64,000 bases of DNA from Dictyostelium discoideum (taxonomy: Eukaryota), in assembly GCA_000004695.1 (NCBI GenBank), contig CM000152.2:6016001-6080000 (forward strand), written 5' to 3'. The position numbers and the translations under genes are program-made. The notes beneath the pieces are model-generated. The model searched no databases and was not told the DNA's origin. It saw only the letters and a list, made by a program, of their open reading frames with translations. Shown here in pieces: positions 25,301 to 26,765 of the stretch (position 1 is the stretch's first letter; the number at the start of each line of letters is the position of its first letter).

Positions 25301-26643
25301 TGAAATGTATGAAATATGATATACATGAAGATTCAATAATTGGTATACCATTTAGTACCGATAGTATGAAATCATTATTTACAAAGATAACTAGAATTCA
25401 AAGACAATTTATAAAAGGTAAATCAATGACTCATTTAGAATTATTAACTCTATTAGAACCATTGATTGCAATTAGATATACACCCTTTCTTTTAAATAAA
25501 AAAATTTCAACCTTTGATAAATTCACCAACCTTATGAGTATCACTGAAAAAGATATAAATAAATTATTAATTGCCTCATCTTGCACAATTAATGATTCAC
25601 AAATGATCTTGGTTACAAGAGACATACAAAATCCAAAAACCCTACAAAAAGAATTATTCCATGGTAAATATAGACCAGAGATAGCATTCAAAGAAATGAA
25701 ACAACATTTTTCAAACATTGATGAAGTATTGGAACAATTGAAAATGAATAAACAAGCAAACATTACAATTACAGATCATCAACTCGAAGATTTATTAAAA
25801 GAAACAGATTTTAGCAAATATGATATAAATCAAGAAAAGCTATTATTTGAATTGATAAAACAATCACAGATTAAATACGTTTATTTAAAGAATTGTTCAA
25901 GTATTGATTCAAAAACTTTTGGGGAATTTAAAATCAATTTAATTACAAAGATGGATTTATCAGGTTGTTCAAATTTAATATATTTTGGTTATTATATATT
26001 TTTAAGTAGTAGTATTATAACTTTACCATCATTAACTCATTTCAAAGCTAGTGGTTGTAATAAATTAAGTCAAATTGTTATTGAATCACCTCATTTAAGA
26101 ATTTTAGATTTATCAGATTGTCCATTATTACAAGATTTTCTAACCTATAGAGCAACAGGTTTACAATCATTGAATTTAAATGGTTCAATTAATAATTCAA
26201 AAGTTTTAGATAATATAAATAGTTATACAGAATTAACTTATTTAAACATTTCAAGAATCATTGGTGATGTTAATGTTTCAGAATTACATTTCCTTTTCAA
26301 AGAATTACAACGTTTAGTTGCAAAAGAAATAAAATCTTTGAAACTTGTTTATTTAGTTCTTCCAAATATTAAAAAAATAGATTTTGAACATTGTAATGAT
26401 TTGGAAACAATTTTTAATTCTAGAAAAAACTTTCACCAAGAACAACATATTGAAATTTGTGTTCATAATTCCGAAAAGGTTAAAATTAAAAAAGAATTAA
26501 AACCAATGTATCATTATTCAATAGATAAATTATTAATTCATTCAATTCAAGATTTAAATGATATTAAACAATATAATTATGATTTATTAAATGGTAAAAA
26601 TTATTATTTAAAATTTAGTAATGATTTTAATTTTATATTATAA
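21460..26643 (+). CDS. Large 1727-aa protein with an N-terminal N-rich tandem-repeat region, two atypical kinase-like motif sets, ankyrin repeats and C-terminal Cys-containing leucine-rich repeats. It ends in a FNIP-like motif (LKFSNDFNFIL).
   Basis: Continuous ORF from ATG 21460. Motifs DCKPDNLIVNELNKLVVIDNDRAF and NNADGNLGNFII...ISIDNDQSF resemble HRD/DFG kinase catalytic and activation segments. ANK: SILHTAIKSKNDNLCNQIQFLVEFGEDINRIHDNLTPLDLAV. LRR: MDLSGCSNLIYF...LRILDLSDCPLLQDF. Confidence 0.6.
21868..22240 (+). repeat. Three tandem copies of a ~100-bp coding unit (KNNGLNDNQQNKENDDFENDQIDSNNNN...) inside the 21460 gene, interleaved with (AAT)n
   Basis: Near-identical nucleotide units start at 21880, 21978 and, diverged, at 22100. 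Confidence 0.7.
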
Positions 26644-26765
26644 AAATTTATTATTAATTTTTATTTTTTATTTTTTTTTTATTATTATTAGGGTCAGATA
26701 ATATTTCAAAACGTGAAACTATATTAAAATTTAGTAATGATTTTGATTTTAAAGTTTTATACACT

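Follow-up and report, generated by a model that had tools for sequence, protein, structure and literature searches.

Two long open reading frames (ORFs) lie close together on the forward strand of the window, by which we mean the whole stretch of 64,000 nucleotides analysed here: ORF1 (21460-26643), which encodes 1727 aa and has the C-terminus ...YDLLNGKNYYLKFSNDFNFIL before its stop codon, and ORF2 (26766-28628), which encodes 620 aa of FNIP repeats. The locus raises the question of whether these are two genes or two exons of one gene and, in the second case, where the intervening intron ends and what its retention would produce. An earlier note on this DNA had joined the two ORFs by an intron of 104 nt and had proposed that retention of this intron yields a truncated isoform. 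We consider it highly likely that a single protein-coding gene of Dictyostelium discoideum, or of a strain almost identical to it, contains both ORF1 and the FNIP ORF as exons, with a spliced intron of 98 nt between them; as a gene structure this is routine, with an ordinary, conserved intron that is already annotated publicly. Sequence features, their conservation and the annotation of related genomes were observed directly, and it is from these that we infer which acceptor is chosen and that the intron is spliced in vivo. The features of the locus are as follows.

21460-26593, forward strand: predicted exon 1, an uninterrupted ORF from ATG 21460 encoding a predicted Asn-rich N-terminus, two kinase-like cores, ANK repeats and LRRs
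26594-26691, forward strand: putative phase-1 GT-AG spliceosomal intron of 98 nt (GTAAAA...T-rich...TTATTAG), proposed from composition and conservation in orthologues
26641-26643, forward strand: in-frame TAA, which would end ORF1 only under intron retention
26692-26697, forward strand: the hexanucleotide GGTCAG, which runs from just after one in-frame AG to the end of the next, exonic with the upstream acceptor and intronic with the downstream acceptor
26692-28628, forward strand: predicted exon 2, with a 25-codon linker/first partial FNIP unit followed by the FNIP array, and the stop codon at 28626-28628
26766-26768, forward strand: ATG of the mechanically called 620-aa ORF, most likely an internal Met within a FNIP unit (FDFKVLYT-M-IPDDIKNL)
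28656-28968, forward strand: 13 AATAAA motifs, a likely polyadenylation region 3' of the exon 2 stop and within 340 nt of it

The window has a G+C content of about 20%, and its long ORFs are separated by spacers of 0.5-3 kb with 10-17% G+C. Neighbours of the locus include a Vps15-like kinase/HEAT/WD40 gene, an RCC1-BTB gene, a Ras-family gene and a reverse-transcriptase ORF. The locus itself falls between the RCC1-BTB gene and the Ras-family gene, with a Ras cluster downstream of the latter. A giant-virus origin, considered in view of the frequent FNIP and ANK repeats of such genomes, was rejected on the basis of the low coding density, the AT-rich spacers, the Vps15, RCC1-BTB and Ras neighbours, and the 99.99% identity of the window to CM142509.1, a 6.4-Mb chromosome record of the accession series to which the Dictyostelium assemblies compared here belong.

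The donor GT lies at 26594-26595 in AAT G|GTAAAAAT, where the earlier note had placed it, and exon 1 ends after one base of a Gly codon (phase 1) that lies 16 codons 5' of the stop at 26641-26643. Two in-frame AGs are found downstream. The AG at 26696-26697 (TCAG, 26694-26697) follows T-runs, and joining 26593|26698 keeps the frame and gives ...YDLLN-D-NISKRETILKFSNDFDFKVLYTMIPDD; the second, at 26690-26691, is 6 nt further upstream (tattattAG|GGTCAG|AT) and gives the junction LLN-G-SDNISK, in which G+GG forms the Gly codon. Splicing to the upstream AG results in 2356 aa and to the downstream AG in 2354 aa, each with a single terminal stop. Because nine different frame-preserving, stop-free GT..AG pairs occur within 26500-26790, an in-frame pair alone is weak evidence for an intron, and the discriminating evidence is composition together with conservation across species.

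The G+C content is 19% in the last 300 nt of exon 1, 4.1% in the intron (26594-26691), 20% in the 74 nt from the acceptor to the ATG, and 24-26% in the FNIP exon, and this step in composition coincides with the proposed splice sites, not with the stop codon or the ATG. A 98-nt intron is typical for D. discoideum, in which introns average 145 nt (PMC2397502, Table 4). The donor hexamer GTAAAA is weaker than GTAAGT, which is present in five of the nine other introns reconstructed in the neighbourhood. In the proposed processing, the pre-mRNA would be cut at G|GTAAAA (26593|26594) and mainly at TTATTAG|GG (26691|26692), and the removed phase-1 intron of 98 nt and 96% A+T would carry the apparent stop codon of ORF1. 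The mature mRNA would then read ...QYNYDLLN-G-SDNISKRETILKFSNDFDFKVLYTMIPDD... and encode about 2356 aa, with ATG 26766 as an internal methionine of that protein.

ORF2 is a FNIP array by profile (PF05725, E 1.4e-82, 272 bits vs a cut-off of 21, 14 stretches). Comparison of its internal repeats with the window itself showed that their in-frame alignment starts at 26718/26724, 42-48 nt before the ATG, so the ATG falls within a repeat unit (LKFSNDFDFKVLYT-M-IPDDIKNL). The ORF2 frame is also open for 108 nt 5' of ATG 26766 and contains no ATG in that stretch, in agreement with the earlier note. Under a reading with two independent genes, ORF1 would end at TAA 26641-26643 and a promoter within the intervening spacer would drive a separate 620-aa FNIP protein. 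Each ORF is mechanically complete, and the spacer contains TATAAAAA and then T-runs, a pattern that resembles Dictyostelium core promoters. However, TATA-like strings are expected in any intron of 96% A+T, translation from this ATG would cut a FNIP unit in half, and the distance from the ORF1 stop to the ORF2 ATG is 122 nt, whereas the other spacers in the window measure 511-3260 nt. The earlier note had pointed to use of a poly(A) signal after 26643 as a check; a motif scan found no AATAAA at 26594-26800, a range that includes the gap between ORF1 and the FNIP ORF, and the 13 AATAAA motifs follow the FNIP stop. Two separate genes are accordingly very unlikely here, and the comparison with related species weighs further against them.

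The locus was compared with its orthologues in the nearest named relatives, D. cf. discoideum (L010; 84-90% protein identity, and 84-88% aa identity at the orthologous locus) and D. dimigraforme (L001; 62-68%, and 65-68% at the orthologous locus). The ORF1-like and FNIP-like parts are unchanged in order and strand in both species, and the donor interrupts the same codon in the same phase (AAT G|GTAAAA in D. cf. discoideum and AAT G|GTAATT in D. dimigraforme). Over the final 90 nt of exon 1, both orthologues share 92-93% identity with the window sequence, with 66-97% identity for the exon flanks overall. Intron lengths are 98, 281 and 194 nt in the window, D. cf. discoideum and D. dimigraforme, respectively; the orthologue introns are largely (ATT)n or (CT)n microsatellites, with fillers that differ between species, and their 3' ends read ...TTATTAG|GGTCAGAT (D. 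cf. discoideum) and ...TATATAG|GATCAAAA (D. dimigraforme).

From the conserved AG to a conserved internal ATGATACC, the frame is free of stop codons in all three species over 74, 77 and 74 nt (same order), and the single length difference is thus an in-frame 3-nt indel. An alignment of the spliced proteins spans the junction with no gap. A frame that is open 5' of the ATG and alignable up to the conserved AG in three species, with its one indel in frame, argues against a gene beginning at 26766. Within the 25-codon linker, eight of the ten substitutions relative to D. cf. discoideum are non-synonymous (counted on aligned segments); since the linker is fast-evolving, the coding argument there rests on frame, stop codons and motif and not on purifying selection. 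A dN/dS estimate for the linker was dropped because the segment is too short and too fast-evolving.

The two ORFs are fused in three public annotations, which may be automated predictions. The assembly GCA_054883475.1, whose sequence CM142509.1 is 99.988% identical to window positions 21344-29688 with a single mismatch at 21832 (C>A, Q125K), carries one gene of 2447 aa that starts at or before window position 21344 and ends exactly at 28628. D. cf. discoideum has one gene of 2299 aa (L010:13364-20544) with a start homologous to ATG 21460, and D. dimigraforme has one gene of 2280 aa that terminates at the FNIP stop. For the D. cf. discoideum gene, the span minus the coding sequence is 281 nt, and ATG|GTAAAA...TTTAATTATTAG|GGT, which uses the upstream acceptor, is the sole single GT-AG intron that gives the 2299-aa product. 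The 2447-aa model could not be reproduced by one added upstream exon giving 91 or 93 extra codons; since the counterpart of ATG 21460 is the annotated start in D. cf. discoideum, the upstream extension of that model may be an over-prediction. Exact look-ups in public proteins with the 1727-aa, the 620-aa, both spliced (Q125/K125) and the reconstructed 2299-aa sequences found no match and were given no weight; the lack of an exact public record for stand-alone 620-aa and 1727-aa products would speak against two genes, but such a negative may be uninformative. Logan contigs L004-L009 were considered as RNA transcripts and set aside, as their ends lie at genome-encoded A-runs and they cannot be called transcripts. 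The proposal that the upstream gene continues into the FNIP ORF as its 3' exon is therefore upheld by the conserved donor, the open frame from acceptor to ATG, the composition, the missing AATAAA and the three annotations.

The 3' end of the intron differs from the earlier proposal, in which the acceptor was the TCAG at 26696/26697 and the intron covered 104 nt (26594-26697, TCAG|AT, junction LLN-D-NISK). That AG exists, is preceded by a T-rich tract and keeps the frame, but the AG at 26690-26691 had been overlooked and is better conserved: all three species have the upstream AG, whereas the downstream AG is present in D. cf. discoideum and replaced in D. dimigraforme (GATCAA, with CAA at its position). 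The upstream AG is the first after the T-tract, is followed by G, is kept in three species and fits the annotated length in D. cf. discoideum, which is compatible with no other acceptor of the pair; it is therefore the most likely acceptor as judged from these comparisons, and the intron would be 26594-26691, 98 nt and not 104. With the downstream AG in frame and shared with D. cf. discoideum, its occasional use, as the minor site of a tandem pair, is possible. The predicted spliced sequence is ...GATTTATTAAATG|GGTCAGATAATATT... (26593|26692) for the 98-nt intron and ...AAATG|ATAATATT... (26593|26698) for the 104-nt version. The corrected acceptor turns the predicted junction peptide into QYNYDLLNGSDNISK, compared with QYNYDLLNDNISK for the 104-nt intron and QYNYDLLNGK for the retained intron.

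The consequences of retention depend on a direct repeat that links the intron to exon 2.

26608-26635, forward strand: intronic copy of the 28-nt direct repeat (TTAAAATTTAGTAATGATTTTAATTTTA), which supplies the FNIP-like tail of ORF1
26724-26751, forward strand: exonic copy of the 28-nt direct repeat, which encodes LKFSNDFDF

The two 28-nt copies differ by one mismatch. The earlier note had described a 30-nt repeat of about 87% identity after the donor and downstream of the acceptor; the identity holds (26 of 30 positions, for 30-mers starting at 26611 and 26727), but the 30-mers begin 17 nt past the donor and 29 nt past the downstream acceptor and not right at the splice sites. No further copy of the 18-mer and 15-mer cores of the repeat was found in the 64-kb window, which indicates that the repeat is not due to chance, and neither D. 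cf. discoideum nor D. dimigraforme has the 28-nt copy in its intron. At the variable base the intronic copy has A, as does exon 2 of D. cf. discoideum. We infer that, in the D. discoideum lineage, a copy of this stretch of exon 2 was probably placed in the intron, after which exon 2 itself would have changed from N to D.

ORF1 does end in the FNIP-like tail LKFSNDFNFIL that had been read from it, and this would also be the end of the retained form. Translation into the intron yields GKNYYLKFSNDFNFIL before the stop in the window (16 aa), compared with GK plus poly-Ile (71 aa) and GNYNLFIF (8 aa), each followed by a stop, in the other two species. The tails of the truncated frame are thus unrelated across the three species, and the FNIP-like tail is found in the window alone among them because it derives from the 28-nt intronic copy of exon 2. 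Together with the unrelated tails, this origin of the motif speaks against the claim of a meaningful truncated isoform, as does the lack of AATAAA after the in-intron stop. In favour of the claim are the FNIP-like end of the retained form and the below-consensus donor, and also the mean length of 107 nt for introns retained in D. discoideum ESTs (PMC2397502, Table 4), which is near the size of this intron. A weak donor and such an average mean that some background retention would not be surprising, and we see no reason in these data to propose functional retention. The combination of a 104-nt intron with a meaningful FNIP-ended isoform made by its retention is consequently unlikely.

The duplicated segment also contains a potential donor of its own, TTA|GTAATG (26617|26618), which with either acceptor would add eight residues (KNYYLKF+R). 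It is stop-free and preserves the frame, and GTAATG is plausible as a donor. However, its position inside the 28-nt duplication limits it to the window species among the three, and a conserved donor lies 24 nt upstream; we regard it as the least probable of the alternatives weighed here. There is likewise a very slim chance that the 28-nt copy and the weak GTAAAA donor together allow a regulated short isoform, produced by retention or by the donor at 26618. If that were true, half a FNIP unit would close the kinase-like/ANK/LRR part of the short isoform in place of the FNIP array, and a templated copy of exon sequence placed in an intron would have given rise to a young alternative C-terminus. 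On the preferred reading of one gene with a 98-nt intron, the exon-derived insertion instead illustrates how the end of a mechanically called ORF can look like a domain motif and thereby hint at an isoform that probably does not exist.

The protein encoded by exon 1 matches no Pfam family above threshold; Ank_2 (E 2.6e-4) and LRR_4 (E 2.6e-3) are sub-threshold. The label of ANK/LRR given to ORF1 by the earlier note therefore holds in part, with sub-threshold scores in ORF1 but clear repeats in family members, which carry ANK repeats and, in some, LRR_6-type repeats, while one matches PI3_PI4_kinase at 3.8e-5. A sequence search of exon 1 against the PDB found no relative, with weak designed-ankyrin matches only. 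An AF2 model of aa 1040-1447, built with 41 family sequences, has a pLDDT of 86 and a pTM of 0.87, and the best 50 matches of this model to the PDB by Foldseek are all protein kinases, each weak (E about 1e-4, TM 0.2-0.38, high rmsd). Three elements are invariant or nearly so in 25-41 family members: the Lys of YFKFKP, D-G-N-x-x-N of NNADGNLGN, and the first Asp of IDNDQSF. By eye these residues appear to resemble the VAIK, catalytic-loop and DFG positions, respectively. The model thus weakly predicts a protein-kinase-like fold for aa 1040-1447, and the predicted order along the protein is an Asn-rich N-terminus, two divergent kinase-like cores split by ANK repeats, an LRR region and the C-terminal FNIP array.

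A HMMER scan with ORF1 aa 1000-1711 returned 581 cluster representatives. Comparison with other Dictyostelium FNIP proteins, which the earlier note had recommended, favours the fused model: in at least eight dictyostelid representatives, paralogues of the window gene, the same core is followed directly by FNIP repeats in one polypeptide. Among these paralogues is D. discoideum AX4 DDB_G0272122 (2020 aa), and the D. firmibasis 'FNIP repeat-containing protein' KAK5584634.1 (2017 aa) is likewise arranged as core and then FNIP. Some high-scoring representatives come from ENA, Logan and JGI/IMG metagenome or read-archive assemblies, and in these Sel1-like, LRR or other tails replace FNIP. The fused model would supply the correct protein of about 2356 aa and add it to a large, uncharacterised dictyostelid family with two kinase-like cores, ANK repeats, LRRs and a FNIP array; its relevance goes little beyond annotation hygiene.

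Compared with known systems, the predicted intron resembles the U2-type GT-AG introns of D. discoideum in its GT...AG ends, T-rich tract, extreme A+T content, length, and conserved position and phase, and differs from them in its donor hexamer GTAAAA and in the 28-nt copy of the downstream exon that it contains. Its 3' end is similar to tandem NAGNAG-like acceptors in having two close in-frame AGs (AG GGTC AG), the choice between which would add or remove Gly-Ser and change one residue; unlike those acceptors, the spacing is 6 nt and not 3 nt, and the upstream AG alone is kept in three species. FNIP/FGxxFN repeats are described as a structural subclass of LRRs with a large family in Dictyostelium (PMC9525666). 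Exon 2 matches the profile of such proteins (PF05725), but here the array would form the C-terminal part of a larger protein (about 2356 aa) and not a stand-alone product. The closest likeness in architecture is to the dictyostelid kinase-like/ANK/LRR-FNIP proteins, which share the core at 31-41% identity (E 1e-73 to 1e-101) and then continue into FNIP repeats as proposed here, although they are paralogues and not orthologues of the window gene and other members of the family bear other tails.

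The intron between exon 1 and the FNIP exon carries one copy (window 26608-26635) of a 28-nt direct repeat, the other copy of which, with one mismatch, lies in exon 2 (26724-26751). The intronic copy duplicates exon-2 sequence and is absent from D. cf. discoideum and D. dimigraforme. The intron is prone to microsatellites, and the copy appears to have arisen there through a short templated insertion or through slippage. Within it is a potential second donor (TTA/GTAATG, 26617/26618), use of which would keep the frame with either of the two acceptors and add eight residues to the product.

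The assembly GCA_054883475.1 differs from the window at one position in 8.3 kb (21832, C>A), which gives Q125K in a part of exon 1 that is rich in Asn and of low complexity. Its 2447-aa gene call begins 5' of the ATG at 21460, pointing to the region from upstream of 21344 to 21460 (e.g. 19954-20100), and this upstream start implies about 91 extra residues. An open stretch with an ATG start (MEDCNNNNYEENENG...) is located at about 19954, and none of the simple two-exon structures tried reproduced the 2447-aa product length.

The gene lies among the following features of the window:

3476-9130, + strand, Vps15-like ORF (Pkinase, VPS15 helical, HEAT, and WD40 domains)
29140-29733, - strand, a sixth Ras-family gene, adjoining the FNIP exon
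about 38400-44800, downstream, five tandem Ras-family genes with products of 210-242 aa and introns in each (17073-23488 of L003, a sequence compared with the window by BLAST)
57164-61932, - strand, reverse-transcriptase-domain ORF (RVT_1, E 2e-30)

The kinase-domain match of the Vps15-like ORF begins at profile position 64, and a short upstream exon and intron are therefore expected. Secondary BLAST matches of L003 revealed a repeat of about 418 nt (92.6% identity; 30495-30910 and 34934-35351) that flanks or overlaps a 1314-aa ORF (31385-35329). The RVT_1 ORF is adjoined by a 444-aa ORF, its region has a raised G+C content (28-34%) and a strongly negative AT skew, and it is probably a non-LTR retrotransposon.

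Truncated or fragmented additional copies of the ORF1-like gene, all missing the FNIP array, are present in tandem or elsewhere in D. cf. discoideum and D. dimigraforme:

L010 (D. cf. discoideum locus), 7986-11539, annotated as two short genes
L001 (D. dimigraforme locus), 7451-13691, annotated as two short genes
L002 (a further contig from these relatives), 9209-12176, annotated as two genes of 119 aa and 442 aa

No extra copy was found in the 64-kb window, and the FNIP-less copies are likely lineage-specific duplicates or pseudogenes.

Exon 1 (21460-26593, residues ~560-1450) belongs with the proteins P0003-P0151, retrieved by a search with the ORF1 core, to a large uncurated family of 581 representatives that combines two kinase-like cores with ANK and LRR. 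Among the members with high scores, those from ENA, Logan, and JGI/IMG assemblies carry tails of Sel1-like, LRR, or other types, and may be bacterial, possibly amoeba-associated. No Pfam model was found for the family core, the fold of which is predicted to be distantly protein-kinase-like.
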